Positions 6,496-50,831 of a stretch of DNA of 64,000 bases are shown in pieces; the stretch's first letter is position 1, and each line of letters starts with the position of its first letter. The stretch is from a virus. Taxonomy: Duplodnaviria > Heunggongvirae > Uroviricota > Caudoviricetes. Where the stretch lies: positions 33,898 to 97,897 of IMG/VR virus record IMGVR_UViG_646311924_000007; one strand, 5' to 3'. Both the position numbers and the translations under genes were made by a program. The notes beneath the pieces were generated by a model that worked only from the letters and a program-made list of their open reading frames with translations, did no database searches and had not been told where the DNA came from.

Positions 6496-6512
6496 AATGC
6501 TCTAATAAATTT
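6496..6512 (+). promoter_or_regulatory. C1 repressor operator-like 17-mer (AATGCTCTAATAAATTT) upstream of the c4/icd/ant module
   Basis: 16/17 match to the phage P1 C1 operator consensus ATTGCTCTAATAAATTT; positioned like P1 Op51. Confidence 0.6.
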
Positions 6513-6699
6513 GTATTTTTAAGTCGCGAATGCTATCTTTTCGCATCATATTGACCTTTTAATCGTTCAGGCTTATAGTTCCGCCGTCGTAGCAAATTCT
6601 GCGACCGGGTTTAGCAGCCTGAATGATTGTGCGGACAGCCGCAGATATCCGATATTGCGGTATTTTTGTGTCCGTAAAACCGCGTTACGCCCAAATTAT

Positions 6700-6776
6700 G
6701 GTGGGGCGTGATGGGGAGGCTTCGGCCTGCTGGTTTCACAATCGCCAGTCTGCTAACCCCGTCACGTCCTGCCACC
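6700..6776 (+). ncRNA. c4: candidate c4-like antisense regulatory RNA
   Basis: GC-rich segment with self-complementary ends (GGTGGGG...CCTGCCACC) between the operator and icd, in the position of P1 c4; has a 7-nt stretch (CTGCTAA) complementary to the icd leader; boundaries approximate. Confidence 0.3.
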
Positions 6777-6826
6777 TGTTTAGCAGCGGGTAGCAGGTTG
6801 TTAAACCTGATTGTGAGGCCGTAACT

Positions 6827-7048
6827 ATGGTTAATGCCAATCCTTGCGCACGCCAAGAATTCATCTGGCGTTTCTATTCCTGTAAAAAACACCACTATCA
6901 CTTCGTTATCGCAGCAACAGAAGACGAAGCACGCTCTCAATTGCCTGATGGCCCCTGCATTTTTACTGCCCGTTTTTCAACTAACTCGCGCAATTCACTT
7001 AGTTACTGGAACCTCCCCTTCTCTGCCGACGTTCAGGGGGGTTTATGA
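6827..7048 (+). CDS. icd: Icd-like protein (73 aa)
   Basis: 73-aa ORF whose TGA overlaps the ant ATG (ATGA), size and position as in P1 icd. Confidence 0.75.
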   Translation: MVNANPCARQEFIWRFYSCKKHHYHFVIAATEDEARSQLPDGPCIFTARFSTNSRNSLSYWNLPFSADVQGGL

Positions 7049-8082
7049 AAAAACCTCTCGTCACCCGTAATGACATAGCCGAAGCTATCGCCCTGCATAC
7101 TGCCTGTATGCCGACACGGGAGATCCCCGGCGCAATTGCCAACTATTTCATGATAACCAGACGTTTTTATACCCGAACAGATAAGGCTGTGATCAACAAG
7201 CTACTGATAGCCGAGATCAGGGATTATTTGATTGAACAAGGACGTCTACGTTACGCAACAGTGGCAGCAGAAATGAGAAAGGAGGCACATAGAATGACCG
7301 GTAATAATTTGAATGTTGAAAAAACAGCACCTGTTACGTCAGCTACGCCAGCACCAGCCGTGAATATCATCCCCAACACCGGAGACACAATCGACAGCCT
7401 GACACTGTTAAAGATGGTCAATGAAGCGCGTAAGTTATGTGGGGAACCAGAGGTTCGGAACAACAAATTCATAGAAAAAATACTCGATGAGCTTGATGGT
7501 GAGCACTACACAAAAAGTGTAGTGGAAAAAATGAACAAAACATCAATGCTTGTCATAACCATGACCTACAAACAAGCCCTGCGAGTCGCCGCACGCGAAT
7601 CAAAAGCCGTCCGCCGTTCGCTGATCGACAAACTGGAAGAATTGCAGCAGGCAAACTCCCCTACCCCATCGATCCCCCAAACATTACCAGAAGCTCTACG
7701 CCTGGCTGCCGAGTTGGCAGAACAGAAAATGCAGTTGGAACAACAGCTGGTGGCCGCAGCCCCTAAAGTCGATTTTGCCGACCGGGTATCAGCGGCTAAT
7801 GGAATCCTGATCGGGAACTTTGCAAAGGTCGTTGGACTTAAGCAAAACGCCCTTTTCTCATGGTTGCGCCAGAACGGCATTCTCATGGCTTTTGGTGCGC
7901 GCAAAAACGTACCGCGCCAACAGTACATCAACGCCGGATATTTCACGGTGAAAGAAGTGGTGCTGGATGATGAAGATGGCTACCAGATACGGCTGACGCC
8001 CCAATTAACGGGTAAAGGCCAGCAGTGGTTAACTCGCAAGCTACTTGATGCTGGTTTGTTAAAACCAGTAGCAATAGGTTAA
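7045..8082 (+). CDS. ant: antirepressor Ant (ORF6N + KilA-C-type domains)
   Basis: 345-aa ORF directly downstream of icd; C-terminal PKVDFADRVS...YFTVKE...TGKGQQWL motif shared with KilA and the second Ant copy. Confidence 0.8.
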   Translation: MKKPLVTRNDIAEAIALHTACMPTREIPGAIANYFMITRRFYTRTDKAVINKLLIAEIRDYLIEQGRLRYATVAAEMRKEAHRMTGNNLNVEKTAPVTSATPAPAVNIIPNTGDTIDSLTLLKMVNEARKLCGEPEVRNNKFIEKILDELDGEHYTKSVVEKMNKTSMLVITMTYKQALRVAARESKAVRRSLIDKLEELQQANSPTPSIPQTLPEALRLAAELAEQKMQLEQQLVAAAPKVDFADRVSAANGILIGNFAKVVGLKQNALFSWLRQNGILMAFGARKNVPRQQYINAGYFTVKEVVLDDEDGYQIRLTPQLTGKGQQWLTRKLLDAGLLKPVAIG

Positions 8083-8095
8083 CAAAAGAAAAAAA

Positions 8096-8120
8096 CCTGC
8101 CAGCAAACTGGCAGGTTTCT
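8096..8120 (+). terminator. rho-independent terminator after ant
   Basis: Hairpin CCTGCCAGC-AA-ACTGGCAGG followed by TTTCT, 14 nt after the ant stop. Confidence 0.6.
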
Positions 8121-8160
8121 GAGCAGATCGACCAACCCGATCTGGATCGAGTCAGAAAAA

Positions 8161-8177
8161 TTTGCTCTAATAAATTT
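8161..8177 (+). promoter_or_regulatory. C1 operator-like 17-mer (TTTGCTCTAATAAATTT) upstream of kilA-repL
   Basis: 16/17 match to C1 operator consensus, 86 nt upstream of kilA ATG; positioned like P1 Op53. Confidence 0.6.
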
Positions 8178-8246
8178 CGTTTTCTAAGTGCAAAGAATCA
8201 CCATTTCGAGCTGGTGATTGAAGGTTGATGCAAATTTGGAGAAAAA

Positions 8247-9047
8247 ATGCAACAAACATTCAATGCGGATATGAATATATCAAACCTTCATCAAAATGTC
8301 GATCCTTCAACCACTCTGCCCGTTATTTGTGGTGTTGAAATTACGACCGACCGCGCTGGCCGTTACAACCTTAATGCTCTACACAGAGCGAGCGGACTCG
8401 GTGCCCATAAAGCGCCAGCTCAATGGCTAAGAACGCTGTCAGCTAAACAGCTCATCGAAGAGCTTGAAAAAGAAACTATGCAGAATTGCATAGTTTCGTT
8501 CGAAGGCCGTGGCGGCGGCACTTTTGCCCATGAATTGCTCGCAGTGGAGTACGCTGGTTGGATTTCTCCCGCGTTTCGGCTGAAGGTAAACCAGACATTT
8601 ATCGACTATCGAGCTGGAAGATTACAACCTGCTATTCCGAAGAGCCTCCCAGAAGCTCTCCGTTTGGCTGCCGACCTGGCAGAGCAAAAGCAACGGCTGG
8701 AGCAAAAAATGCTGATGGATGCACCTAAAGTCGAATTCGCCGAACGCGTTGCTACCGCCAGCGGGGTTCTAATCGGCAACTATGCCAAAGTGCTCGGCCT
8801 GGGCCAAAACTATCTCTTCACCTGGTTGCGTGATAACGGAATTCTGATCGCAACCGGTGAACGCAGGAACGTCCCCAAACAAGAATACATATCCCGTGGG
8901 TATTTCACCCTTAAAGAAACCGTGATCGATACAAGCAATGGAAGCAGGATTTCTTTCACGACTCGTATAACCGGCAAAGGTCAGCAGTGGCTGATGAAGC
9001 GATTGCTTGATGCTGGTGTGCTGGTACCTGTCGCGGCAGCGCGCTAA
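8247..9047 (+). CDS. kilA: KilA (KilA-N + KilA-C domain protein, 266 aa)
   Basis: 266 aa as in P1 KilA; N-terminal RYNLNALH segment; C-terminal KilA-C motif (PKVEFAERVA...YFTLKE...TGKGQQWL). Confidence 0.8.
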   Translation: MQQTFNADMNISNLHQNVDPSTTLPVICGVEITTDRAGRYNLNALHRASGLGAHKAPAQWLRTLSAKQLIEELEKETMQNCIVSFEGRGGGTFAHELLAVEYAGWISPAFRLKVNQTFIDYRAGRLQPAIPKSLPEALRLAADLAEQKQRLEQKMLMDAPKVEFAERVATASGVLIGNYAKVLGLGQNYLFTWLRDNGILIATGERRNVPKQEYISRGYFTLKETVIDTSNGSRISFTTRITGKGQQWLMKRLLDAGVLVPVAAAR

Positions 9048-9076
9048 CAGACGTAGTAAGAACCACCAGCATTGTA

Positions 9077-9922
9077 ATGCTGGCTAAAGTCACTTTCCTG
9101 AGCTGTATAACGATGAGCGATTTTACTTTTTCTGGCTATGAATTGGCCTGCTTTGTAACACACTCCGGTCTATCCCGTAGCGCCGGGCATATCCTGTCGC
9201 AATGTGCAAATCTCGCGGCAACAACCAGTGAATACTTCATTCACAAGCCTCACCGCCTGATCGCGGCAGAAACTGGTTATAGCCAATCAACCGTCGTTCG
9301 TGCATTCCGTGAAGCTGTAAACAAAGGAATCCTGTCAGTAGAGATTGTTATCGGCGATCACCGTGAACGTCGCGCTAACCTGTACCGGTTTACACCATCC
9401 TTTTTGGCCTTCGCACAACAAGCAAAAAATGCGCTGATTGAAAGCAAATTAAAGATCTCTTCAGCGGCAACCAAGGTTAAAGCTGTTCTCGCTAAGACAT
9501 TGGCTTTATTTAATTTTTTATCCACACCCCCATGTCAAAATGATACCCCCTCCCCCTGTCAGGATGACGTGGCAATAAAGAATAAGAAGTCACAATTTAA
9601 AAAAACAAAAAGATCAGTTTCCGGCGCTGCCGGAACGACCAAACTCAAAAAATTGACTTCATGGATCGCTGAGGCAAAAGCAAAGGCTGACAATCTGCGG
9701 TTATCCAAAAAACGCGCTCAAAAACATGAGTTCAAGCAGAAAGTAGAGGCGGCAGCGCGGAAATATGCTTACCTGAAGAACAAGCGTTCTCCTGATATTG
9801 GCGGGGTATCAAACTTCGATAATCTGCCGCATTGCATGACGGTAAACGAAGCTCTTAATGCGGTTTTAGCCAAAAATAAAGATAACGAACAATGGGGTAT
9901 ACCGGCAGGATTCAGAGGGTGA
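9077..9922 (+). CDS. repL: RepL-like lytic replication protein (281 aa)
   Basis: 281-aa ORF immediately downstream of kilA, same size and position as P1 repL; Lys-rich C-terminal half. Confidence 0.7.
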   Translation: MLAKVTFLSCITMSDFTFSGYELACFVTHSGLSRSAGHILSQCANLAATTSEYFIHKPHRLIAAETGYSQSTVVRAFREAVNKGILSVEIVIGDHRERRANLYRFTPSFLAFAQQAKNALIESKLKISSAATKVKAVLAKTLALFNFLSTPPCQNDTPSPCQDDVAIKNKKSQFKKTKRSVSGAAGTTKLKKLTSWIAEAKAKADNLRLSKKRAQKHEFKQKVEAAARKYAYLKNKRSPDIGGVSNFDNLPHCMTVNEALNAVLAKNKDNEQWGIPAGFRG

Positions 9923-10218
9923 TAGATTGCTCTAATCTGGAGTCACCTGGCGTTTTCAGTTTGAGGTCGGAGATGCAATCTGATTTTTTACAGTTAGCGA
10001 TCGCTTTTGCAGGATATGTTTGTATTGGCTTCTGTGTATACATGATCAGCCGAAAAATGCTTGTCGATATCGACCGCAAAGAACAAGCAGAGGAGATCTT
10101 AGTATGGATTTTCTTTGGCGCGGTCTGGCCATTAGGGATCATGTTTGCTGCAACATTTCTTCTGATGTGGATATTCACCCTTCCAGGTGATTTCTATAGA
10201 AAAAAAGCCAGACATTGA
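9892..10218 (+). CDS. small membrane protein (108 aa)
   Basis: Two predicted TM helices (YVCIGFCVYMI, FFGAVWPLGIMFAATFLLMWIF); overlaps the repL 3' end. Confidence 0.4.
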   Translation: MGYTGRIQRVIDCSNLESPGVFSLRSEMQSDFLQLAIAFAGYVCIGFCVYMISRKMLVDIDRKEQAEEILVWIFFGAVWPLGIMFAATFLLMWIFTLPGDFYRKKARH

Positions 10219-10625
10219 TACAATCGTTGCGGGTGCTTGAGGCTATCTGCTTCAGGCATTACCCGAAAAGCAGATAGAAGAAAGCCCCAGATAACATTAC
10301 GCGTCCTGCAAGACGCTTAACATTAATCTGAGGCCACATCTATGCTTAGCATACGTAGATTAGCCTCTTACCGACCAAAAGGTCAAGGAGAAGCAGGCTA
10401 TGAAGCAGCAAAAAGCGATGTTAATCGCTCTGATCGTCATCTGTTTAACCGTCATTGTGACGGCACTGGTAACGAGGAAAGACCTCTGCGAGGTACGAAT
10501 CCGAACCGGCCAGACGGAGGTCACTGTCTTCACAGCCTACGAATCTGAAAGGTAAGAGACCTGGCGGGGAGAGATCCCCGCCACTCTTCGTGTGTCAGGT
10601 ATCCTCAATGCACCCTTTCCTCTCC

Positions 10626-10650
10626 AAATAAAAAAGCTCCCGAAGGAGCT
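10626..10650. terminator. bidirectional intrinsic terminator
   Basis: Hairpin AGCTCCCGAAGGAGCT flanked by an A-run upstream and T-rich sequence downstream, between convergent transcription units; position +/-1. Confidence 0.5.
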
Positions 10651-17233: not shown

Positions 17234-18430
17234 TCAGTTAGATCTGATAAATTCAATACGGTCAAAAACTGCTTTAGCAAAATCTTCCGCGGCAATTCGC
17301 GCGTTCTTCAATGCATCAGCACTACCAACATACGTTGCCGGGTTAGCTGAAATAACAGTGTCAAAAGACTCGCCGCAACGTTCAAAACCGTCAAGGCGAG
17401 GGAGGACGACATCGAGCATATCCCCACCGAACACTTCTTTAGCCAGGCTATGGCAATACTTATGATCTGCCTTGTTACTCAACTTGGACATAAAACCAAT
17501 GTTAGTCGCAAGCTGGCACTCGCAGCCTTCATCCGAAATGAGTTTCACCAACTCAGGAAGGCGGGCAACGTATTTAAGCGATGAGTGGAAATCGACAGTT
17601 GCTGGCGGCAGAGGTGTAAACAGTATATTGGCCGAGGCCAAAGCATTTTTCAGGAAGGCGTCAAGGTGAGGACCACTATCAACGAGGATAAAGTCATAAT
17701 CGCTCTTCAGCTTATCAATCACATTTTCTTTCAGGACAGCATGGATGTTCTGACCCGGTAGATGCTCATTGCACAGCTCTCTCCAATCGGATGCAATAAA
17801 GGCATCGTCAATCGACGCAGGCATAACGTCAACCCCAGGTACAACAGAAGGAACAATAAACTCCTCTAACAGCTCTTCACGGCTTACATTCTGCAACATA
17901 GCCTGTGCAGATGTTGCGTTTACGATACCAATAGAGTGTTTATGGCTTAAAAACATCGTTGCTGAAGATTGCGGATCAAGGTCAATAACCAGAATCCTTA
18001 AATCTTCCATCAGAAGATGAGGGTGAGCACGCATTGCATGCGCCAGAGAAACCGTCGATACAGTTTTTGACACACCGCCTTTAAGATTGGAGATGAAAAT
18101 CACATACGCTTCGCTGTAGCGATCCCGGTATTTTGGCACTCCGCGATGTTCATATATGTCAATGATGTTCTGAATTGACATCGCATATTTCATTGAAGAG
18201 CCAGCAGGGCGTTTATCGAAAACATAACCCTTTTCTTCCATTTCACTTACGGCATAGTCAACGTTCGCTCGAGTCAGTAGAGGCAATTTTGCCAGTGCCG
18301 CTTTCGCATAGACCTGGTAAAACTCGTTCGCGTGTAGCTCATCCTTTTGCAACTGTACTTGTTCAGTCAGAACATTGAGCATTCTGTTTGCTCTTTGAGC
18401 AACCTTGTGAAGCTGGCTGGAATCACTCAT
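17234..18430 (-). CDS. parA: ParA partition ATPase (398 aa, long N-terminal type)
   Basis: Deviant Walker A (ISNLKGGVSKT) after an N-terminal regulatory extension; 398 aa as in P1 ParA. Confidence 0.9.
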   Translation of the reverse strand: MSDSSQLHKVAQRANRMLNVLTEQVQLQKDELHANEFYQVYAKAALAKLPLLTRANVDYAVSEMEEKGYVFDKRPAGSSMKYAMSIQNIIDIYEHRGVPKYRDRYSEAYVIFISNLKGGVSKTVSTVSLAHAMRAHPHLLMEDLRILVIDLDPQSSATMFLSHKHSIGIVNATSAQAMLQNVSREELLEEFIVPSVVPGVDVMPASIDDAFIASDWRELCNEHLPGQNIHAVLKENVIDKLKSDYDFILVDSGPHLDAFLKNALASANILFTPLPPATVDFHSSLKYVARLPELVKLISDEGCECQLATNIGFMSKLSNKADHKYCHSLAKEVFGGDMLDVVLPRLDGFERCGESFDTVISANPATYVGSADALKNARIAAEDFAKAVFDRIEFIRSN

Positions 18431-18570
18431 CGAAAGTCATCCTTTATGCTGTATTTTTGAATTTAATTAAAAATGCTGCATAAAATAATAATGTATGCGT
18501 AGATGCTTGTACATGGCATTCTCTGCATGTTTTGTTCATTTTGCACGATTGAGAGTTACAAGAAAGGCAC

Positions 18571-18591
18571 AAAAAAGCCCCGTTCAGGGGC
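18571..18591 (-). terminator. rho-independent terminator (minus strand)
   Basis: On the minus strand GCCCCTGAACGGGGC hairpin followed by TTTTTT, 8 nt after the stop of the 134-aa ORF and just upstream of the par promoter region. Confidence 0.6.
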
Positions 18592-18598
18592 ATCAGTG

Positions 18599-19003
18599 TT
18601 ATTTGCTAAGAGCAGCGAATAATCGTTCGAAATCGATAGTATCTATAGCACGCGTAAGCGCCGGAAGTTCAGCCTCAAAGTACCCGTGTCGATCGTAAAA
18701 GAAGGGACCGAAGAGCGAGGCATGTTGGATTCTACTTCGCCCCAGCCCGGACACACAGTTAAGCCCATTACCGGCTAAAAGGCTAAAAAACTTCTCTGGA
18801 TTATCGTGGTAAAGCTGAGAATCAATGGTGGCGGTTAACTCTTCCATAGGGAAGCACACCCGCCCTGTCTCCCAGGGATATTTAGTCCGAAGCATAAACA
18901 TTGCTTTCAGCAATTCACATTGAGCGCGGATCGCGTCCGGTTCATAGCCAGATATGGAGACATAAGCCACGTCCCTCATTCCTGCGTCATCTTTGAAAGT
19001 CAC
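18599..19003 (-). CDS. hypothetical protein (134 aa), partner of the T5orf172-like gene
   Basis: ORF co-oriented with and 70 nt downstream of the 111-aa gene, followed by its own terminator; no recognisable motif. Confidence 0.5.
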   Translation of the reverse strand: MTFKDDAGMRDVAYVSISGYEPDAIRAQCELLKAMFMLRTKYPWETGRVCFPMEELTATIDSQLYHDNPEKFFSLLAGNGLNCVSGLGRSRIQHASLFGPFFYDRHGYFEAELPALTRAIDTIDFERLFAALSK

Positions 19004-19072
19004 GATAGAAGTAACATCCAGTTCTTTTTCGAAAGAGCGAGCAGCATCTACTGGACGCTGAAGTAAATCATT

Positions 19073-19408
19073 CTACTTAATGCGCTCGAGAATCCCTCCC
19101 CACATATCATTTAGATATTCGATATGAGCCAAAACCTTATCAAGACACTCTCGTGTAAACCATTCAGTATGCCCGCCACCGGCGCTTTTCTCCCACGGCG
19201 CATTCCAGGGGAAAAAGGTTGCGTGTAAAGCCCGCTCAAGATTAACCATTGCCAAACGCGTACCACGATAGACCCGTGAAAGCGCAAAATCGGGACTCAC
19301 TTGTAGCCCTTTAAACCGTGCCAATGGACCACATGAAATGCCGATTTTAAAAGTATCTCCGTTCTCCGGCACCAGAACGTAGAGGTAGTGTTGTTTCTCT
19401 TCTTGCAT
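19073..19408 (-). CDS. T5orf172-type (GIY-YIG-like) domain protein (111 aa)
   Basis: Motifs matching the T5orf172/GIY-YIG-like pattern: YLYVL...GDTFKIGIS...LERALH...GGGHTEWF; start codon checked at 19406-19408. Confidence 0.55.
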   Translation of the reverse strand: MQEEKQHYLYVLVPENGDTFKIGISCGPLARFKGLQVSPDFALSRVYRGTRLAMVNLERALHATFFPWNAPWEKSAGGGHTEWFTRECLDKVLAHIEYLNDMWGGILERIK

Positions 19409-19442
19409 ATCAATACCACTGCTTGATGAGAACCGCGCAAAT

Positions 19443-19699
19443 GTTGACTATGCGCGAAAGTTAATGTGAATAGTTGACTATGCGCGATGTGACTACAGTC
19501 AAAAGTTGACTGTAGTCGATTTAACTCCACCAAAGATCGACTATGTAAGATATTGTCGGGAGAAACGTTGACTATACGCGATGAAATGACCCTAAAAGCC
19601 ATCTCAATAGCGACTTGCAGAATATTGACGCCAGCAAAAATCCACCAGCGTCAACGAATGTCGCCTATAGTCAACTTCTCGCTATCGCATATAGTCAAT
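19443..19699. repeat. incA: incA-like iteron array downstream of repA
   Basis: At least 7 copies of the 15-bp repeat GTTGACTATGCGCGA and variants, in both orientations. Confidence 0.7.
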
Positions 19700-19700
19700 A

Positions 19701-20642
19701 TTATGGATTGCGCTTATGGATCTGAAAGCCGATTTTCCTGCCGTTTTTTATCTCTGAAAATTTAAGATATTCAATAGCTTCCAAATCTTTCATGGCTTTT
19801 CTGATAACGCTATTTTGCACGCTAACGGATGATTTGAGATTAAGCCTTGCTCTAAGGCGCTCAATGCTGACAGGTGCCGGGTTGGCGGGTAGAGCCTCAA
19901 AGAATGTATACAGTACCTTGGCCGTCTCTTTGCGCCCGAGCTTATCCAGCATCTTCAGCTTCAGGATTCGCTTATAGTCAACATAGTAAAGTTCAGATAG
20001 CTGTTTCTGCGGCTGGATCTCGATAACATCAAGCTCGGTATTCAGGCTGCTATATGCCAACAAGTTGACGTTAATGTTATTGAGATGACCTTTTGCCGCC
20101 GGGAAGCGGAATTTGACAACTGTCTGCTGAATGCGTGTCAGAGAGTCATCAATACTTTTACGGAACGCCTTTGAAAGGCGCTTACGTGGATAGCCGCATC
20201 GATCGGCAAACTCGGAGAATGGCAGGGTGATTATGCCGTCATCATCAGGTGCGTAGTCAAACAACGCGGAGGTTATGCCCACCCACACCTTAAAATCAGT
20301 ATCCATATCCAGGCGTGGACCATGAATTTCAATTCCCTCATAGCCTTCCTGCTCAACAATTTTGAGGCTTGATAGTTCTTCGGTTGCGTTCGTTGTGTTT
20401 GTAGTAACTGACGATCCGCGACGTAGTGCCACATTGGTAGATTTTAAGGTTGGCACAAACACACCTAAGCGCAACAAAGCAATGGGTTGTATAGTGCTAT
20501 TGTTATTGGGTTTCAGGCTGTGGATTTCTCCTGTATTTCCTGCAACTTCTTCAACGCTAAGGAAGCCTTTATTTTCTTCCAGCATCGTGGTTTCTCCATA
20601 TGTGGCGCGGCCTGGCGTCATCTGGATTGCAGTTATCAACAA
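19701..20642 (-). CDS. repA: RepA plasmid replication initiator
   Basis: Conserved GPRLDMDTDFK core of P1/RepFIB-type initiators; flanked by iteron arrays; ORF starts with TTG in the track, so the true start is probably an internal ATG. Confidence 0.8.
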   Translation of the reverse strand: MLITAIQMTPGRATYGETTMLEENKGFLSVEEVAGNTGEIHSLKPNNNSTIQPIALLRLGVFVPTLKSTNVALRRGSSVTTNTTNATEELSSLKIVEQEGYEGIEIHGPRLDMDTDFKVWVGITSALFDYAPDDDGIITLPFSEFADRCGYPRKRLSKAFRKSIDDSLTRIQQTVVKFRFPAAKGHLNNINVNLLAYSSLNTELDVIEIQPQKQLSELYYVDYKRILKLKMLDKLGRKETAKVLYTFFEALPANPAPVSIERLRARLNLKSSVSVQNSVIRKAMKDLEAIEYLKFSEIKNGRKIGFQIHKRNP

Positions 20643-20665
20643 CTGTGAATAGTCAGGCTCTAAAA

Positions 20666-20765
20666 TCGCGTACAGTCAATGTTTCTGTCGCATATAGTCA
20701 ACAATAAATCGCGTGCAGTCAACAATAAATCGTGCACAGTCAACATAAAATCGCGTATAGTCAAT
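20666..20765. repeat. incC/oriR iterons (5 direct repeats, 21-22 bp spacing)
   Basis: TCGCGTACAGTCAA, TCGCATATAGTCAAC, TCGCGTGCAGTCAAC, TCGTGCACAGTCAAC, TCGCGTATAGTCAAT immediately upstream of repA. Confidence 0.75.
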
Positions 20766-20767
20766 GT

Positions 20768-20876
20768 TGATCCCATTTCAGGCCAGAAATGGCGCGGCTT
20801 ACAGCGATCCGGGATCTTCTTTGGATCTTCCTGGGTTCTCTTTAGGATCTGTTTATTGGATCTATGCTGTGGATAA
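20768..20876. other. oriR accessory region: GATC cluster and DnaA box
   Basis: Seven GATC sites within about 95 bp followed by TGTGGATAA (DnaA box, reverse orientation); architecture matches P1 oriR. Confidence 0.55.
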
Positions 20877-42269: not shown

Positions 42270-42812
42270 GTTCACAGATAAAACACTCTCCAGGAAACCC
42301 GGGGCGGTTCAGACCGGATATAACCGATGATCTGTTCTATCTGGATTTGGACACGGTTATTGCCGGTGATATACGCCCAATCCTTGAGAATCCACCAACC
42401 TGCTTCACCATGCTTAGGGATTTTTACCATCCACAATATCGTGGTAGCGGTGCCCTGTGGATACCAAATAGTGTAAAAGCACATATCTGGAGTTCATTCT
42501 GGCAAGATCCGGAAGGTTGGATTGCTCGTTGTGTCACTACTGAGTGCTGGGGTGATCAGGGGTTCTTACGGAAGGTTATGGGCGATGATACACCAGCATT
42601 TCAGGATCTGTATCCAGGATGGTTTGTAAGTTACAAGGCCGATGTTGTGGAACCTGGTTCAAAATATGCGAGCGCGCGTTACTCCAGGGGGAATGGGGCA
42701 TTACCAAAGGACTGCCGAATAATCTTTTTCCACGGCAAACCGCGGCCTCGCGAAGTGTCAGAGGATTGGCTTCCCCTCATTAGCTCGTTTTTTGAGCGAG
42801 AATCAGAATAAT

Positions 42813-42829
42813 ATTGCTCTAATAATTCC
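42813..42829 (+). promoter_or_regulatory. C1 operator-like 17-mer (ATTGCTCTAATAATTCC)
   Basis: 14/17 consensus match immediately after the stop of the interrupted gene. Confidence 0.55.
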
Positions 42830-42861
42830 ATATTTTTAAAACGTGATGTACACTCATCACG

Positions 42862-42878
42862 TTTTTTATTAGAGCAAT
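42862..42878 (-). promoter_or_regulatory. C1 operator-like 17-mer, inverted (ATTGCTCTAATAAAAAA)
   Basis: Inverted partner of the 42813 site; the two flank the palindrome ACGTGATGTACACTCATCACGT. Confidence 0.55.
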
Positions 42879-42892
42879 CTATAAGGTGCACT

Positions 42893-43111
42893 ATGTGGCC
42901 ATTCCGACGGAAATATCACTACTGGCTGATCGCCTTTGTTACGCCGACCGGCGGTATCAGGCATGTCATCACCAGGTATCGCAACAAGAGACTCACCTTA
43001 GCCAGAATTTTACAGGCTGCCATAGGTGAGGGACTGGATACAAATTGCGTAGTCCTTCCACCTTCATACTTAGGAAAAATGACCGAAGCACAAGCTAATA
43101 CGGAACTTTGA
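42893..43111 (+). CDS. small hypothetical protein (72 aa)
   Basis: ORF downstream of the twin operators. Confidence 0.3.
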   Translation: MWPFRRKYHYWLIAFVTPTGGIRHVITRYRNKRLTLARILQAAIGEGLDTNCVVLPPSYLGKMTEAQANTEL

Positions 43112-43112
43112 A

Positions 43113-44375
43113 ATGAGCACTTCAGCACAAAACCAATCAATCGAAAATGTTTCTATCCCTGATGTCCTGAATGCCGGTATCCCGGCCATTATCCAGAACA
43201 TCCGAGCCGCGCAACGCCGCGTTAGTTGTGATGACCTCACAGCGCGTTTTTTTGATAATGCGGTTCAGTCAGCGGAGATGCTTCACGCACAGCTTATTGA
43301 TGTTTATAACGCAGAAGCTGATAGCCATAACTCCCTGGTAGATGCAGCTGAAAATATGCAGTTGGATCTCGGTCTGAAGGGTAAAGAAATTGAAGAGCTT
43401 CAGCTGGAAATTGAACATTTGAAACGCCAGCAACAGGACGCGATCGAAGATGCGACGCATGACGCCAACCAGCGTGCTGATAATGCCGAACGTATAAGCA
43501 TTGAGCTGGAAACAAAACTCAATGAAATGACCGCGATGGTTGTGCTGCGGAACTCACAGATTTCAACTCTAAAATCTCAATATAAAGAGATCATGAAACT
43601 TGATCCTTTTAACCTTGAGAAACGCTATAACAAAGCCAAAAGCGAGCGACAGGAACTGCGTAAGCAGATTGTCGACCTTAACCAACAGCTCAAAAAGGCT
43701 ATTAAAGATGCAAGCGAGGCGCGCGTGGCATTTGCTAATAAAAAAGCAGAGGTTACCGAGCTGGTTAATGAAAACGCCAAATTTGCGACGCTCAAGAAGG
43801 AAATGTATGGCATTACTGAGCGCCGTTTCCCTGCAAGCAAACTCCATCCGACGTTAGGGCAAATCTCATTCTTCCCGCGCCTCCTGGCTTATGGGATCTC
43901 ATCGCCTAAAGAGTTCAATAACGAGCGTCCTTATATCGTTTCTAAGCTGGACTTTGCTTATCAGTTCTGCTGCGACATGGGCTATGCCATTGATATACGT
44001 ATCAACGAATGGTTGATGCCAAACTTCCAGCCGTTGGCCATTTTCCGCGAGTTCCAGCCGGAAGGTTGGGTAGAGTTCTTCCATGAAATGATCTGTAAAG
44101 AGATGGAAAGCCGCCGCCCGGAACTGGTCCGCCGTGTCGAGTGGGCGCAAGAGGTTATGTTGGCAGATGCAGAGCTACCGTTCGAACCGGAATTCATTGA
44201 TGAACTGGCCAATAAAGGGCTGCATACCCTGTTTGATGTGGTTACCCGCCGTCATGAGCAGTTGGTTGTCGAATTGGGTTTAGAGGAAACAGCGGCAAGA
44301 AGACTTCTCGATGTTTGCTATGCACGTAGCGATGCATGGGAAAAAGAGAACGGCGGCACTATTTACGTTCGCTGA
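43113..44375 (+). CDS. coiled-coil protein (420 aa)
   Basis: Long heptad-rich central region (EELQLEIEHLKRQQQ...); terminator follows. Confidence 0.5.
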   Translation: MSTSAQNQSIENVSIPDVLNAGIPAIIQNIRAAQRRVSCDDLTARFFDNAVQSAEMLHAQLIDVYNAEADSHNSLVDAAENMQLDLGLKGKEIEELQLEIEHLKRQQQDAIEDATHDANQRADNAERISIELETKLNEMTAMVVLRNSQISTLKSQYKEIMKLDPFNLEKRYNKAKSERQELRKQIVDLNQQLKKAIKDASEARVAFANKKAEVTELVNENAKFATLKKEMYGITERRFPASKLHPTLGQISFFPRLLAYGISSPKEFNNERPYIVSKLDFAYQFCCDMGYAIDIRINEWLMPNFQPLAIFREFQPEGWVEFFHEMICKEMESRRPELVRRVEWAQEVMLADAELPFEPEFIDELANKGLHTLFDVVTRRHEQLVVELGLEETAARRLLDVCYARSDAWEKENGGTIYVR

Positions 44376-44397
44376 TAGTTACAGTGTCACTTTTAAT

Positions 44398-44429
44398 GCT
44401 GGTGGAGTGCGTCCCACCAGCATTTTTTT
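44398..44429 (+). terminator. rho-independent terminator
   Basis: GCTGGTGG-AGTGCGT-CCCACCAGC hairpin followed by TTTTTTT. Confidence 0.6.
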
Positions 44430-44448
44430 CGTCCAATGAGGAGGGCAT

Positions 44449-44955
44449 TTGAGTATTTTCAATAAACACGCACACCAGGAACGTCCGTATATCGTCATAG
44501 TCGATATTGATGGGACGATATCAGAGGCAACGGAAGACAGGCTGCATTTGCTTCCACCACCTGGCAAAGGTGCATTAACAGAGCACTGGAACGAGTTTAA
44601 CCTTGCCTGTGACACTGATGCTCCCATCACTCCAGTTATTGATATGGTGCGCCAGTTATTTAACGTTTACACGGTCTGGTTTGTAACCGGGCGCTGTGAG
44701 ATAGCCAGGGATAAAACACGAGCCTGGTTGCGTAAGCACGTAACAAACGGGGCTGAGCCTTTGCTATCTATGCGTCCTGCCACCGATGACAGAAATGACG
44801 GCCCAGCAAAGATTGCTCTCCTTAAGAAAATTGGTCTAAGTAAAATCGCGTTCGCGCTGGAAGATAAGATTGAAGTGGCGCGTGTTTTCAGGAGTCACGG
44901 CGTACTTACGTTAATGGTCAGGGAGTATGAAAACGCGCTTCTCCATCAACAGTAA
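44449..44955 (+). CDS. HAD-superfamily phosphatase-like protein (168 aa)
   Basis: N-terminal DxDGT motif (IVDIDGTI). Confidence 0.5.
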   Translation: MSIFNKHAHQERPYIVIVDIDGTISEATEDRLHLLPPPGKGALTEHWNEFNLACDTDAPITPVIDMVRQLFNVYTVWFVTGRCEIARDKTRAWLRKHVTNGAEPLLSMRPATDDRNDGPAKIALLKKIGLSKIAFALEDKIEVARVFRSHGVLTLMVREYENALLHQQ

Positions 44956-44971
44956 TTGCTCTAATAAATCT
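44955..44971 (+). promoter_or_regulatory. C1 operator-like 17-mer (ATTGCTCTAATAAATCT)
   Basis: 16/17 consensus; overlaps the stop codon of the HAD-like gene. Confidence 0.6.
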
Positions 44972-45149
44972 TGATTTTTAAAACAGAGAAAGTGAAAATA
45001 AAAACATGCCGCAAGGCGCGGCATGTATCCAATCAATCACAGGAGCTGAAAATATGAACACGGCATTCAAAATCATTATGGCCGCGATCTATTTCTGGCT
45101 GTTCTCTATCACTTTTGGCGGCATCGTCGCGCATGGGTAAGGGGGATGC

Positions 45150-45878
45150 ATGAAAGGCGAAGTGAAAGAGCGCGGCATGATTTTCAACGATGAGATGGTC
45201 CGAGCCATCCTCGAAGGAAGGAAAACGCAGACGCGGCGGATAATGAAAAATCAGCCTGCGGAAGTTGGTCCAGAAGCACCAGTGATGGTTAGGGAAATTG
45301 GTGCAGGTTTTCAGTGGTACGGGGCTGATGGTGTAAGCAGTGTTTTCAATTGCCCCTTTGGTATCGTCGGCGATCGAATTTGGGTTCGTGAAACATGGGC
45401 GATATTAGGCAATGAAGATGGTTGCAGTGTGGACTGGAACGACAACCTTTGTCGTGGCGATGAGAAGAACGCAGCAAGGATTTATCGGGCCAGTTGTGAG
45501 CAAAAGCCTGGTGATTACGGTTTATGGTCGATACCCGATGATGCCGACTGGAAACCTCACACTGTGAATGAAAAGTTTGATGGTGGGTGGCGTCCATCAA
45601 TTCACATGCCGCGATGGGCATCACGCATCCTGTTGGAAATTACCAACGTGCGCGTTGAGCGGTTGAACAATATCAGCGAATGCGATGCAAGGGATGAGGG
45701 CGTTCCGCCTGCTGGAAGTTTGCTTCCTGATCACCCGGGAACATTCCTTACTCCCAAGGGGGATTTCGCAATGGCCAAGGTTGCGTTCCAGCGCCTGTGG
45801 GAATCCATCTATGGTGAAGAAAGCTGGAACGCTAATCCCTTGGTGTGGGTAATCGAGTTTAAGCGCATTCAGGAATAA
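45150..45878 (+). CDS. ASCH-like domain protein (242 aa)
   Basis: N-terminal IFNDEMVRAILEGRKTQTRR resembles the ASCH/PUA-like motif. Confidence 0.4.
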   Translation: MKGEVKERGMIFNDEMVRAILEGRKTQTRRIMKNQPAEVGPEAPVMVREIGAGFQWYGADGVSSVFNCPFGIVGDRIWVRETWAILGNEDGCSVDWNDNLCRGDEKNAARIYRASCEQKPGDYGLWSIPDDADWKPHTVNEKFDGGWRPSIHMPRWASRILLEITNVRVERLNNISECDARDEGVPPAGSLLPDHPGTFLTPKGDFAMAKVAFQRLWESIYGEESWNANPLVWVIEFKRIQE

Positions 45879-45961
45879 ACCGTGAGTATGCATCAAATCG
45901 TCAGTTTTTCAGGTGGACGAGCATCGGCCTGTCTCGTTCATCTGTTCGAAGAGGTAGTGGC

Positions 45962-46165
45962 ATGACAATCGTAAAAACCCATACCGGCACCGTGATCACC
46001 AAAGACGGGCCGCAGGTAAAAAAACTGCACCAAACAGAGCGGATGTGGGTCGTCGGCAAAAATGAGTTTTACCACAAAGATACCGGACGCCGCCACTTTG
46101 CAGAAAATACGCGCCGTCGACTGCTGTTAGACACCATCAAGCCTATCGAGGTGAAGCATGTTTAA
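45962..46165 (+). CDS. small hypothetical protein (67 aa)
   Basis: ORF in co-oriented compact early-gene array. Confidence 0.3.
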   Translation: MTIVKTHTGTVITKDGPQVKKLHQTERMWVVGKNEFYHKDTGRRHFAENTRRRLLLDTIKPIEVKHV

Positions 46166-46397
46166 ACAGAACGAAAAAGCTATCGCTCAAATTGCTGATT
46201 ATATCCCGCGTGCGTGCCGGGGTATGCAGTTGCAGGAAGCCAAAGCGCGCCTGGAGAAAAAAATTGCGCTCTATATTGATGACGGCTGTGATGCTGCCGT
46301 TCTTAACGCGGCGTTCGCACCAGCTCTTAACAGTCATACTCGGGAGTCTTTTTTTTCGTGCATCGAAGCGCAACTCCGCAAAGGAGGCAGCCAGTGA
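46158..46397 (+). CDS. small hypothetical protein (79 aa)
   Basis: ORF with start overlapping the previous stop. Confidence 0.3.
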   Translation: MFKQNEKAIAQIADYIPRACRGMQLQEAKARLEKKIALYIDDGCDAAVLNAAFAPALNSHTRESFFSCIEAQLRKGGSQ

Positions 46398-47095
46398 GCG
46401 AAATTAATTACCGGGCACTGCGTGAGATAGCAAAACAGGCAACACAGGGCGAATGGGTCGCATTTATTTCGCCGGGTACTGGTACGTATGCGGTGCACAC
46501 GCCCGGTGATGAACGATGTGAAGACGTTATCAAATGGACCGGCTTTGATGGACAGAAAAATGCAGAGAACAACGCTCGTCATGTTGCCGCGTTCAACCCA
46601 AAGGTTGCACTGGAGCTGCTTGGTGAAATTAAGTGCTTGGAGGACACAAATATTGATGCCACGTGCCGAATTTCAGAGCTTGAGACTAATCTCGCGGCGC
46701 TGGTGGCAGAGAACGCCGGGCTGAAACACGCAATGGCCGTAACTCTTGAGCATGTGTCGGTCACGGATGCAGGGCAGGCTGGTGTTGCTGCAATGATTAT
46801 CAACGATGCCCTACACCACAGCGAAACTCCAGCTACCGATGCTTTTCTGGCTGAAATTCGTGCGGAAGCACGCAACGAGGGGATTAACTATACCGCCAGC
46901 CGTCTTGCTGCTGCGTTCAATCACGGATTTATCAATAAGTCTTTGCGTGAAGTTTTCGACGTTACACGCATGATTTTGTCAGCGAAAGAAGAGTTGGCTA
47001 ATGAAGCGCATCCGATTGATGGCCTGTCTGGTGAATATGCGGAGAAATCCCTTGAAGAATGGGCGGAACAGATTCGCAAAGGAAGCAGCCAGTGA
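46358..47095 (+). CDS. hypothetical protein, paralogue family A (245 aa)
   Basis: Shares coiled-coil and TPATDAFLAEIRAEAR block with ORF 47379..48071. Confidence 0.4.
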   Translation: MHRSATPQRRQPVSEINYRALREIAKQATQGEWVAFISPGTGTYAVHTPGDERCEDVIKWTGFDGQKNAENNARHVAAFNPKVALELLGEIKCLEDTNIDATCRISELETNLAALVAENAGLKHAMAVTLEHVSVTDAGQAGVAAMIINDALHHSETPATDAFLAEIRAEARNEGINYTASRLAAAFNHGFINKSLREVFDVTRMILSAKEELANEAHPIDGLSGEYAEKSLEEWAEQIRKGSSQ

Positions 47096-47382
47096 ATATC
47101 GACACGACAATAACGATCGATACGCTCCTAAATACCGGTCTGGCACTTCTCGGTTGGCTTTACATCATGTCCCGTACATGGCGATGGCTGGGTTCCATTT
47201 TCCTAAAACAGTGGAAAAAACGGCGCAAACAGGAACTACGCCAGAAGGCATTAGAAGCGTTCTATGACGCATTTGAGCTTAGCCGCATTGAACCAGGTAC
47301 AACAGCCAGGATAGCGACAAAAGGCGACCTGATGATAGTGATGTTCCGACAGGAGAGAGCAGAGAAAGGGGAATCAGCATGA
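47059..47382 (+). CDS. small membrane-associated protein (107 aa)
   Basis: ORF with one hydrophobic segment; overlaps neighbours. Confidence 0.3.
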   Translation: MGGTDSQRKQPVNIDTTITIDTLLNTGLALLGWLYIMSRTWRWLGSIFLKQWKKRRKQELRQKALEAFYDAFELSRIEPGTTARIATKGDLMIVMFRQERAEKGESA

Positions 47383-48071
47383 AATTTTCCAAATTTTCTG
47401 AGTTGGTGAATCGTATTTTGTCCAACAACCACAGCCATCGTCGCGATATGGATGTAACGATCGTTGTTCATTCGCCTGGCAGCATTGGTTCAACACCTTC
47501 AGTTGAGGTTCAGTCAATTCACGCTGGTTTTGATTGGGATTCCGGGAAAGTGCTTATTTTCCCATCACAGCCACTGACCACGCTAACACCAGAACAGATT
47601 ACTGATATCACTGATAGTGTGCGCAAAGGTCAGTCTTGGCACGCATATCAGGAATACAAGAAGCATCAAGAGCAGTTGGAAAAATTGTCGATTGAACTGG
47701 ATGCCGCAAAACAGCGCATTGCAGAGCTGGATGGTAATCGCACGGCGCTGGCAGTGGAGAATGCCTCAATGAAGCTGTTTATCAGGGGCTGTTGCTACGT
47801 GTTTGATGGCCAGCAGGATGAAATATCTGATGCGTATATCTGCGCAACAGACGGAGGGATGCCGCAAATTCCAGCCACCGACGCTTTCCTGGCTGAAGCT
47901 CGGGCGCAGGGGGTAGAGATGATGCGCGAACACCCATCAATCAAACTTTGCTCTTTGACGCACATATGTGATGAGTTAGCCGCCCAGCTTCGAAAAGGAG
48001 AGCTGCATATGATGTTTGACGCTGGCATTCACATCAAAGGAGAAGAGCATGGAAATAAAACCAGAAGATGA
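47379..48071 (+). CDS. hypothetical protein, paralogue family A (230 aa)
   Basis: IPATDAFLAEARAQG block and coiled-coil shared with ORF 46358..47095. Confidence 0.4.
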   Translation: MKFSKFSELVNRILSNNHSHRRDMDVTIVVHSPGSIGSTPSVEVQSIHAGFDWDSGKVLIFPSQPLTTLTPEQITDITDSVRKGQSWHAYQEYKKHQEQLEKLSIELDAAKQRIAELDGNRTALAVENASMKLFIRGCCYVFDGQQDEISDAYICATDGGMPQIPATDAFLAEARAQGVEMMREHPSIKLCSLTHICDELAAQLRKGELHMMFDAGIHIKGEEHGNKTRR

Positions 48072-48408
48072 GTTAAGTAATATTGTTTTATTTCCGGTAA
48101 AAGAGGATGACCCACGTAATCAGGTTAATTTTCTTTATGAACCATCGGAAAGACCATATTGCCATCATGCCTCTGTCCGGGTTGATGAAAAAGAGCGTCA
48201 GGTCCGCTGTAAAATCTGCGGTGCAGTTGTGGAGCCATTTGACTGGATGCTCTCTGTTGCGAAAAGAGAAACCAGGCTGGCAGATGATGTAAAACTATTG
48301 CGCCAGGAGGAACAGGAAAGGCGAAAAAATATAGAAAAGCTAATTCAGATTGAGCGTAACGCGAAAGCGCGGATACGCAGAGCGACAAAATCCAGAACTG
48401 AATATTAA
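48016..48408 (+). CDS. zinc-ribbon protein (130 aa ORF; likely start at internal Met)
   Basis: CHHASVRVDEKERQVRCKICG pattern; basic C-terminus. Confidence 0.35.
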   Translation: MTLAFTSKEKSMEIKPEDELSNIVLFPVKEDDPRNQVNFLYEPSERPYCHHASVRVDEKERQVRCKICGAVVEPFDWMLSVAKRETRLADDVKLLRQEEQERRKNIEKLIQIERNAKARIRRATKSRTEY

Positions 48409-48453
48409 ATCAGCACTGTAAATAAAATTTAATCCTTAACCGGAGGTATATCT

Positions 48454-48666
48454 ATGTTAAATACACAGAAAACCATTAACGCGGAAAAATATAACGAGTG
48501 GGTAAAAAAATTCTCTGAGCAGATTTTTAAAATTACTGCTGACGAGAATGTAGCAAAAAATGAATTAGAGCCGTGGACACCTGAAGGAACCGACCCAAAT
48601 TATTGCTGGTGGGAGGTTGATCCGGTTGATGCTGCAAATGAAGCCATGAGTTACCACAACGATTAA
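48454..48666 (+). CDS. small hypothetical protein (70 aa)
   Basis: ORF with good GGAGG spacing upstream. Confidence 0.35.
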   Translation: MLNTQKTINAEKYNEWVKKFSEQIFKITADENVAKNELEPWTPEGTDPNYCWWEVDPVDAANEAMSYHND

Positions 48667-48813
48667 TGTCGGGATGCCGCCCGAAAGGGCGGTAATAAAA
48701 ATGGCTGAACTAATCGGAGAACAAAACGATGAAAAACCGTAAAGCTAAGATGCTTATCTCCCGTGTATACAGATTTTGCTACCCCAGCCAGTGGTTGAGA
48801 GTTAGCAATCGCC

Positions 48814-49131
48814 GTGTGGTGTTGTTTTCATTTTCTGGAATTGCCAGAGAGGGAGGCCGAGATAAGCGCAGCGCGGCGCAAAACCGCTGGAAAAACCACT
48901 TGCGCACTAAAGGAGAGTGATATGGCTATTGCTGCAAGTTACACCATGCATCTCTATTGTGATTGCCTCCAGTGTACAGATGGCAAATATAAGTCGCCAG
49001 ACTTCGGTGAGTATATAGGTACGTCATGGGCTGGCTGTGCAAAAGAGGCGCGCAAGGATGGCTGGCGAATAAGCAAAGACAAAACGCGTGCTTTTGCGCC
49101 CGGGCATAAAGTTTTGAGGATTAACAAATGA
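48814..49131 (+). CDS. small Cys-rich protein (105 aa ORF)
   Basis: CDCLQCTDGKY...C cluster; probable start at internal Met. Confidence 0.3.
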   Translation: MWCCFHFLELPEREAEISAARRKTAGKTTCALKESDMAIAASYTMHLYCDCLQCTDGKYKSPDFGEYIGTSWAGCAKEARKDGWRISKDKTRAFAPGHKVLRINK

Positions 49132-49970: not shown

Positions 49971-50227
49971 TGGATGTAAAAGAGAAGGTTTTGCAGGTGA
50001 TGCGTTCCCGTGCTGCCCTGCAAGAGAAAGCTCTCGGCGGGGAATATCCATTCAGGATGGCAACCTGGAATTTGCGGTTGGCAATGGAGAAGGAATTTCC
50101 TGATGAAGAATGGCGTTCGGCAGATTTGCGCAAAATTCTTATGGAGCTGGCTAAAGACGGAGCAGTATCCAAAGATACCTATGCCAGCCGGATTGGTCAG
50201 GCGGTATGGAGACTGGAGGTGCGGTAA
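49967..50227 (+). CDS. small hypothetical protein (86 aa)
   Basis: ORF, start overlaps previous stop. Confidence 0.3.
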   Translation: MMDVKEKVLQVMRSRAALQEKALGGEYPFRMATWNLRLAMEKEFPDEEWRSADLRKILMELAKDGAVSKDTYASRIGQAVWRLEVR

Positions 50228-50508
50228 TGGCTAACCTGCAACTTGCCGTTAAAGGTGAATACTTCGATGCCATGATTCGCGGGGAGAAAACGGAAGAGTA
50301 TCGCCTGTGTAATGACTACTGGAATAAGCGCCTCGTTAACTGTAAGTATGACCGCCTGATTATCACAAAGGGATATCCGAAGCGCGAAGACTTCAGTCGC
50401 AGAATTGACGTCCCGTATAACGGATATGAAATAAAAACAATCACACATCCACACTTCGGTGATAAACCGGTAAAGGTGTTCGCGATAAAAGTGAAGATTA
50501 ATAGCTAA
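50206..50508 (+). CDS. ASCH/DUF3850-like small protein
   Basis: GEYFDAMIRGEKTEEYR motif. Confidence 0.35.
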   Translation: METGGAVMANLQLAVKGEYFDAMIRGEKTEEYRLCNDYWNKRLVNCKYDRLIITKGYPKREDFSRRIDVPYNGYEIKTITHPHFGDKPVKVFAIKVKINS

Positions 50509-50531
50509 ATTTCAATTAACACGGAGTAATT

Positions 50532-50825: not shown

Positions 50826-50831
50826 ATTAAT

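Follow-up and report, generated by a model that had tools for sequence, protein, structure and literature searches.

The direct repeat shared by the two ant genes of this phage-plasmid is, in all likelihood, explained by two paralogous immI-type immunity cassettes rather than by a structural element, and the shared KilAC-coding end acts as an occasional recombination site in what is otherwise ordinary mosaicism. The stretch of 64,000 nucleotides analysed here (the window) can be assigned by sequence comparison to a P1-like (Punavirus) plasmid prophage. Between tub/pmgC and c1/coi it is collinear with P1, and positions 6500-9100 are 96-98% identical to the immI-kilA-repL region of P1, P7, RCS47 and other Punavirus. 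Since this region matches P1 immI and the window is collinear with P1, the first ant gene is P1 ant1/ant2. The explanation is carried by the anatomy of the two loci, their paralogy, the pattern of selection on the shared end and the natural recombinants found in relatives, all of which are observed. The relevant features are the following.

6496-7048, plus strand: upstream part of immI (Rfam RF03163 and RF01695, operator search, P1 annotation)
6496-6512, plus strand: C1 operator-like site of cassette 1, equal to P1 Oc4 (operator search)
6573-6625, plus strand: c4 a1b1 targets of cassette 1 (Rfam, P1 annotation)
6694-6779, plus strand: C4 RNA of cassette 1 (RF01695, 69.6 bits)
6827-7048, plus strand: icd of cassette 1, its stop overlapping the ant ATG at 7045
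7045-8082, plus strand: ant1 ORF, 345 aa, start overlapping the icd stop (96% identical to P1 immI, where ant1 and ant2 are annotated)
7672-8082, plus strand: 3' end of ant1, linker and KilAC domain, repeat copy 1 (blastn, register, Pfam ANT at aa 232-334)
8247-9047, plus strand: kilA, with KilA-N and KilAC domains (ORF list, Pfam)
59409-59973, plus strand: left part of cassette 2 (Rfam, operator search, insert boundary relative to P1)
59414-59430, plus strand: C1 operator-like site of cassette 2 (operator search)
59505-59582, plus strand: isrK-like RNA of cassette 2 (Rfam RF01394, 60.8 bits)
59607-59694, plus strand: C4-like RNA of cassette 2 (Rfam RF01695, 75.9 bits)
59749-59970, plus strand: icd-like ORF of cassette 2 (81% identical to icd)
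59967-59973, plus strand: original start of the second ant gene, ATG at 59967, codons 1 to 2 1/3 (IS629 junction)
59974-61283, minus strand: IS629, 1310 bp, in codon 3 of the second ant gene (ORFs, pseudoknot, ends, duplication)
60903-61229, minus strand: IS629 orfA (ORF list)
60016-60906, minus strand: IS629 orfB (ORF list)
61287-62398, plus strand: remainder of the second ant gene (longest intact ORF 61310-62398, 362 aa, ORF6N and KilAC)
61967-62398, plus strand: 3' end of the second ant gene in the c1-proximal cassette, repeat copy 2 (blastn, register, Pfam ANT at aa 250-351)
62406-62427, plus strand: hairpin terminator between the second ant gene and convergent c1, unrelated to the hairpin after ant1 (8091-8120)
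62431-63282, minus strand: c1 repressor gene, outside the repeat-bounded interval (ORF list, P1 comparison)

The first-pass annotation of this DNA described near-identical repeats of about 450 bp in 7600-8082, roughly 85-90% identical and lying in the same orientation 54 kb apart. Orientation and distance are borne out, the register offset between the copies being exactly 54,316 bp, and the observation is real and partly confirmed, but it was overstated. Self-blast of the window gives a single alignment, 7672-8072 against 61967-62388, with 80.9% identity over 423 columns; the core (7741-8066 against 62057-62382) reaches 87.2% over 327 columns (blastn, E ~1e-104). What was taken for a near-identical repeat is therefore a diverged one of about 340-420 bp. 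In ungapped register, the last 342 nt before the end of both genes are 84.8% identical, and the copies close with the stop codons at 8080-8082 and 62396-62398. Upstream of 7741 the register between the copies is broken by a 21-nt indel; the upstream piece (7672-7724 against 61967-62019) is 81% identical (blastn). Homology begins at 7672, whereas 7600-7670, included in the original claim, is unrelated to its ant-2 counterpart (27-33% identity in register). Identical runs of more than 50 bp were also reported, and there is a single one, of 54 bp at 7939-7992, the next-longest being 31, 29 and 20 bp. Pairwise alignment thus upholds the long exact run and places identity over the full stretch below the earlier estimate. 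The self-blast returns only two copies, with no third ant copy in the window, and the repeat is the largest there apart from two copies of IS629. Its E-value excludes a chance origin.

The last 342 nt contain 52 differences, 40 of which fall on third positions of codons (dS 0.73, dN 0.055), with a dN/dS of about 0.08 for the shared 3' end, and homology between ant1 and ant-2 ends at the stop codons, the downstream hairpins being unrelated. Because the differences are mostly synonymous and the homology stops where the coding sequence does, the similarity of the DNA reflects constraint on the protein. The so-called direct repeat is the KilAC-coding 3' end, held similar by purifying selection on the protein and not on the DNA; it represents an old paralogous domain and not a piece of DNA maintained for its own sake. 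If the differences were placed at random, an exact run as long as 54 bp would seldom be expected (P ~0.003-0.006), and either past conversion or local constraint may account for it.

The proteins are consistent with this arrangement. The ANT/KilAC domain (Pfam PF03374, cutoff 25.3 bits) is present in ant1 (E-value 3e-31, 108.2 bits), ant-2 (5e-31, 107.8 bits) and kilA (2e-32, 112.2 bits), as had been noticed at the protein level for the KilA-C motif, and all three proteins fall into PHROG 63, 'anti-repressor Ant'. Nothing but this protein domain is common to kilA and the ant genes; in related loci, the KilAC part of kilA has about 66% nucleotide identity to both ant 3' segments. The two ant genes are homologous over their first ~85 codons (~60% aa, 62-70% nt) and again over the last ~135 residues, and their middles are unrelated. 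Since ORF6N (PF10543) is matched in ant-2 alone (aa 106-192, 69.8 bits, cutoff 27.8) with no match in ant1, the central domains of the two differ. The middle of ant1 has no Pfam match, and a PDB search with the ant-2 protein gave no sequence relative.

Each cassette consists of a C1 operator-like site, a small antisense C4 RNA, icd and then ant. Translation of ant would be coupled to that of icd, and a second start farther inside the same frame would give a shorter product of the Ant2 type. Cassette 1 is the canonical immI upstream of kilA and repL, and cassette 2 a counterpart between pacB and c1 that is broken by IS629. An operator search finds 15 C1-operator-like sites in the window against 0.35 expected. 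The predicted site of cassette 1, AATGCTCTAATAAATTT at 6496-6512, has one mismatch and equals P1 Oc4. Within ant1 there is an internal start of the Ant2 type at 7294 with AAGGAGG ahead of it, and P1 annotates ant2 at the equivalent position. In P1, Ant1/Ant2 act as antirepressor by binding and inactivating C1, and c4 RNA represses their synthesis (PMC8546580).

Judged from its layout, the second ant gene belongs to a second, complete immI-like cassette, and the part of it that first drew attention would be only the best-conserved third of a paralogy extending over the whole cassette. Cassette 2, 1.71 kb in size, is inserted between pacB and c1; in the window, 59409-62431 stands in place of the 27-bp spacer that separates pacB from convergent c1 in P1. 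At its left edge lies a predicted C1-operator-like site with two mismatches, TTTGCTCTAATAAATTG at 59414-59430. Both C4 RNA matches (69.6 and 75.9 bits) exceed the Rfam gathering threshold of 45, and the C4 RNAs of the two cassettes are strongly diverged; the two icd genes are 81% identical over 161 nt (blastn). With IS629 and one copy of the target duplication removed, the icd-like stop overlaps the ant ATG at 59967 (ATGA). The sequence AAGGAGGCACAyAGAATG is conserved at 7294 and 61529 (AAGGAGG-N8-ATG, internal Ant2-type start with predicted products). Every immI feature that can be looked for in sequence is thus found in cassette 2: a C4 RNA, the icd overlap, the internal start and the C1-operator-like site. 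By analogy with P1 genetics, icd and ant are probably coupled in translation in both cassettes, and the putative Ant of cassette 2 would presumably antagonise C1 as well.

As found here, this second gene is interrupted. IS629 (IS3 family) at 59974-61283 has TGAACCGCCCCGG... ends, is flanked by a GAA target duplication (59971-59973 and 61284-61286), carries an ALIL frameshift pseudoknot (121.5 bits, Rfam) and is 99.8-100% identical to the annotated IS629 of Stx phages. A second copy, 100% identical and inverted, lies at 41001-42311 inside pmgQ. When IS629 is taken out, the reading ATG AGA ACG TCA TTA GTC ACC CGT GAA GAG ATG... is restored, with its ATG overlapping the icd-like stop. The 'ant-2' ORF at 61310 is what is left of a longer gene and begins at an internal Met. 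An insertion in codon 3 severs the long form of Ant from its start codon, its ribosome-binding site and the coupling to icd, and IS629 probably silences or weakens the second ant gene. The same insertion in cassette 2 was found neither in any complete E. coli record searched nor in phage records.

Cassette 2 itself is common. P1 and P7 lack it. Its ant occurs at full length in about 320 plasmids of PLSDB and in 241 complete records of E. coli, and hundreds of full-size plasmids keep both ant genes. An ant gene between pacB and c1 has already been noted in RCS47 and pTZ20_1P (Venturini et al. 2019, PMC6906374). Relatives also hold cassettes elsewhere. A 1713-bp unit of C1 operator, C4, icd and ant lies between dbn and gene 5, a site that is empty in the window (32998-33056, with a bidirectional terminator); another cassette is found inverted, some 2 kb past coi; and one 97-kb IMG/VR contig has three cassettes.

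Whether such genes recombine was addressed through these relatives. For 3 loci from closed plasmids (L003, L004 and L005) and 159 from IMG/VR, the icd, 5', middle, 3' and downstream-flank segments were each assigned a type, and in about 160 related loci the 3' allele was typed at the 52 sites that differ between ant1 and ant-2. Canonical loci dominate, with 76 being entirely of type 1 before kilA and 50 entirely of type 2 before c1. In some 135 loci the 3' allele tracks the downstream flank (type 1 with kilA, type 2 with c1) whatever the middle domain, and in L003 and L062 it does so though the 5' and middle segments are of the other type. The immI-locus gene of closed plasmid NZ_CP058684.1 (L004) is of type 2 at 35 sites and of type 1 at the last 17, switching from ant-2 to ant1 type between 7938 and 7993, that is, within the 54-bp run; a contig (L082/L163) switches in the opposite direction at this point. 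In L153, L069, L027/28/37/40, L054 and L092, short stretches of the other type lie inside the gene end and resemble conversion tracts. Most conversion patches come from draft IMG/VR contigs, and L003-L005 are the mosaics seen in closed plasmids, L005 (pLH85-a-A) having cassette-2 ends around an ant1-like middle. Crossover points in relatives are spread over several exact-match runs, and the two 3' ends in the present genome are cleanly of type 1 and of type 2, respectively. The earlier proposal that the repeat is a recombination substrate is thus supported by comparison with relatives (L004, L082/L163 and the patches) and not by this genome.

Two chimeric queries with the crossover set in the 54-bp run were also searched against PLSDB. 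The combination of ant-2 5' part, ant1 3' end and kilA (chimera-B) is contiguous in 44 plasmids, those among the matches listed (25 of 44) being 87-268 kb and all of full size; the reciprocal query (chimera-A) is contiguous in 3 plasmids (86-88% identity, 95-131 kb). An ORF6N-type 5' part and middle thus stands upstream of an ant1-type 3' end and kilA in about 44 PLSDB plasmids, while an ant1-like middle in the c1-locus gene is seen in few. These hybrid architectures indicate that the central domain is exchanged between loci and the 3' end stays with its locus. As exact runs of 20-54 bp are present, the repeat can host occasional homologous recombination and gene conversion, probably of the RecA type. 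Exchange would move the central domain between loci, leaving the 3' end linked to its downstream flank, and the partner might be the genome's own second cassette or one that belongs to a co-resident relative; the recombinants in relatives could stem from exchange between separate phages that share or infect the same cell. Identity between the 3' ends is 83-86% in 14 other contigs that contain both loci, and an identity kept at that level means that exchange is occasional and does not homogenise the copies. The idea that antirepressor specificity is swapped holds in a structural sense only, in that the central domain moves between loci. The known specificity determinant of immI in P1 is the C4 RNA with its targets, not the C-terminus of Ant.

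A broader reading can be offered tentatively, and we think it rather unlikely. A few cassettes of C1 operator, C4, icd and ant at no more than four fixed intergenic sites (immI, pacB-c1, dbn-gene 5 and beyond coi) would form an exchange system that diversifies antirepressor or anti-immunity specificity in the population. The 5' segment (the Ant1-specific N-terminus) and the 3' segment (KilAC) would serve as homology arms, and the variable central domain would be swapped between loci and between co-resident relatives.

At the opposite end, the similarity might be a mere by-product of domain conservation with no part in recombination, the mosaics arising by illegitimate recombination or by independent acquisition of ant genes. 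The low dN/dS, the heavily diverged synonymous sites and the 83-86% identity of the 3' ends in 14 genomes, with no general homogenisation, speak for this. However, within the homologous stretch the parental type changes cleanly at runs that match exactly (L004, L082/L163, L159), and short patches of the other type have locus-native sequence on either side (L153, L069, L027/28/37/40). Homologous exchange leaves such signatures, end-joining and independent acquisition do not, and this account is improbable.

A further proposal was that the repeat could resolve the circular genome into two circles, which would matter for the biology of the element. A RecA crossover between the direct copies would yield a 54.3-kb circle and a complementary one of about 41-44 kb. 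The copies are indeed in direct orientation, and Shen and Huang are said to have put the minimum for RecA recombination in E. coli at about 25 bp in 1986, which the exact runs of 54, 31 and 29 bp attain or exceed. Yet copies that differ by 13-19% should recombine far less readily in the presence of active mismatch repair, and the gene content of the products argues against them. Between the repeats lie kilA, repL, parA (17234-18430), a Rep3-type initiator (19701-20642), phd/doc and pacAB, and outside are c1 (62431-63282) and coi. With the replicons on one side and c1 on the other, crossover would leave a 54,316-bp circle without the repressor and a complementary circle without a replicon. In P1, C1 represses kilA/repL, ban and lpa (PMC8546580; P1 annotation). 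The first circle should consequently be derepressed and toxic and the circle lacking a replicon should be lost, so that the reciprocal products of an intramolecular crossover would probably both be non-viable.

Plasmid records point the same way. No closed plasmid among the PLSDB matches listed combines a hybrid junction with the size expected after deletion; the contiguous chimera matches listed are all of full size and therefore represent locus variants rather than deletion products. A single small candidate, NZ_CP069970.1 (39.4 kb), was set aside because its record is linear and partial and pacB, icd, ant and c1 follow one another in it as usual. Plasmid MBT-5 is of full size (89.6 kb) despite far more similar copies, its two ant genes sharing about 600 nt at 96-100% and about 420 nt at ~98% identity. 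Deletion-type junctions do occur in two draft contigs: L159 joins immI upstream sequence and the 5' end of ant1 to an ant-2-type 3' end and c1, and L163 (a 25.8-kb contig) joins the pacB flank to the flank of a third cassette site. As these are short-read contigs that meet at repeats, where misassembly is possible, the junctions are not to be trusted. With hybrid-junction plasmids listed at full size and hundreds of plasmids retaining both genes, the two-circle claim is not sustained, and we regard a deletion substrate as very unlikely. The two genes might also stem from a tandem-like duplication of ant that took place recently in this genome, the repeat being its remainder. This is suggested by the shared orientation and cassette architecture but is hardly credible and was rejected on divergence, given a dS of 0.73 in the best-conserved part, unrelated central domains and strongly diverged C4 RNAs, with the same two-cassette arrangement and divergence in many relatives and no cassette 2 in P1 or P7.

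Two paralogous cassettes with an occasionally recombining KilAC-coding end give a concrete picture of how antirepressor genes are reshuffled in P1-like phage-plasmids, elements that commonly carry resistance genes in E. coli. The repeat looks harmless for genome stability, as its deletion product is predicted to be non-viable and is not observed in closed plasmids. In the present element, IS629 appears to have disabled the second antirepressor gene or to have uncoupled it. Where P1-like elements reside together, the possession of several antirepressor cassettes that can be exchanged could have an effect on heteroimmunity and cross-induction between them.

How do these cassettes compare with known systems? 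A site-specific switch (lox, cix or an sfx-like shufflon) is a poor likeness, since the repeat is coding, has a dS of 0.73 and ends at stop codons, and no recombinase gene adjoins it. The likeness is closest to the immI operon of P1 and P7. Cassette 1 is this operon, 96% identical to that of P1. Cassette 2 resembles it in the C1-operator-like site, the C4-family RNA, the icd-ant overlap (ATGA), the internal Shine-Dalgarno sequence with ATG and the KilAC C-terminus. It differs in lying between pacB and c1 instead of upstream of kilA, in an isrK-like RNA that replaces the a1/b1 leader, in its strongly diverged C4, in the ORF6N central domain and in the interruption by IS629. The extra ant of RCS47 (FO818745) and pTZ20_1P is the same gene at the same locus. 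With IS629 removed, cassette 2 is 97.8% identical to RCS47 over 1466 nt (3' ant and c1) and 88% over 983 nt (left part). The RCS47 and pTZ20_1P reports list the gene as an insertion and do not describe the C4 and icd elements, the 3' end shared with ant1 or exchange between loci, and a keyword search of the open-access literature, which may miss work, found no paper on exchange between ant loci. The extra ant gene is thus already known; the multi-locus exchange pattern was not found there, yet it does not come as a surprise.

In Gifsy-1 of Salmonella, isrK-orf45-anrP offers a further parallel, its downstream antirepressor requiring translation of a small ORF (Hershko-Shalev et al. 2016, PMC4825925). 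Cassette 2 likewise has an IsrK-family RNA upstream of a small ORF and an antirepressor gene. In contrast, Gifsy-1 is a lambdoid prophage, the present element is a plasmid prophage whose repressor is of the C1 type, and an AntQ-type antiterminator is not seen next to cassette 2.

At the level of the protein, the nearest relatives are antirepressors with shuffled domains. Iyer and colleagues, in Genome Biology in 2002, reportedly described antirepressor-like phage proteins in which KilA-N, Bro-N and ORF6N domains are shuffled in front of a KilAC (ANT) C-terminus, and here one KilAC C-terminus is found with three different N-terminal or central domains. Phage mosaicism is said to be accounted for by the modular theory of Botstein, from which the present case has no essential difference, the recombination joints in relatives lying at the edges of conserved segments. 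The shared 3' end is a standard case of a domain-shuffled KilAC antirepressor combined with mosaicism at the boundaries of conserved segments.

As a substrate for homologous recombination, a pair of IS629 copies is far better than the ant repeat, the direct repeat formed by the KilAC-coding 3' ends of ant1 and ant-2.

41001-42311, + strand: IS629 copy 1, interrupting the P1 pmgQ homologue (P1 coordinates 81646-81653)
59974-61283, - strand: IS629 copy 2, within the second cassette

The copies are 100% identical and lie in inverted orientation about 17.7 kb apart, and recombination between them would invert the intervening segment (42312-59973). An IS629 copy is also found immediately adjoining a gene annotated as 'anti-repressor protein Ant' in the record of the Stx2 phage VT2phi_272 (HQ424691.1 / NC_028656.1), which raises the question of whether icd/ant junctions are a preferred target of this element.

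Two draft contigs carry an ant gene joining the flanks of different loci. In one (L163/L082; IMGVR_UViG_2548876964_000006, 25.8 kb) it links the pacB flank to the gene 5 flank, and in the other (L159; IMGVR_UViG_2534681832_000025, 45.5 kb) it links the region upstream of immI to c1. Either recombination between cassettes truly generated these structures, as deletion or circle products, or the flanks were joined via the repeat during assembly.

Relatives of the window hold cassettes at further sites, one of them between the following genes.

32007-33005: dbn
33052-33684: gene 5

The intergenic terminator here (32998-33056) is an empty site in the window, while in four related loci (L042, L057, L079 and L080) it is occupied by a third cassette of 1713 bp comprising a C1 operator, C4, icd and ant. 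Three ant cassettes are present on a single 97-kb IMG/VR contig (UViG_2703718869_000013). A fourth context was found in L033, L038, L072, L075, L077 and L078, where an icd-ant cassette lies about 2.07 kb from an inverted match to window 64000-63171, so that it sits past coi/imc towards cre, on the c1 strand. This may be the same site as 'RD-1' of pSvP1 (PMC6906374).

Other segments of the window also depart from P1. Downstream of repL, 9936-10630 stands in place of P1 rlfA/rlfB and contains the following RNA feature.

10231-10405: hok/sok-type toxin-antitoxin RNA (Rfam sok, 114.8 bits)

Little or no P1 DNA match was found for 18532-20782, which spans the positions of the P1 incA iterons, repA and oriR and encodes a different Rep3-type initiator (19701-20642), or for 45844-53046, which stands where P1 has the greater part of its pmgT-hot region and of which only about 356 bp aligns.

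The second cassette and immI differ in their RNAs as well. Their C4 genes have diverged strongly and cross-repression by the two C4 RNAs is therefore doubtful. Corresponding places in the two cassettes are taken by different elements.

6573-6625: c4 a1/b1 target leader of immI (RF03163)
59505-59582: IsrK-family RNA of the second cassette (Rfam RF01394, 60.8 bits)

This substitution suggests that the second cassette may follow a logic of the Gifsy-1 type, with an sRNA activating translation of an upstream small ORF, rather than pure C4 repression.
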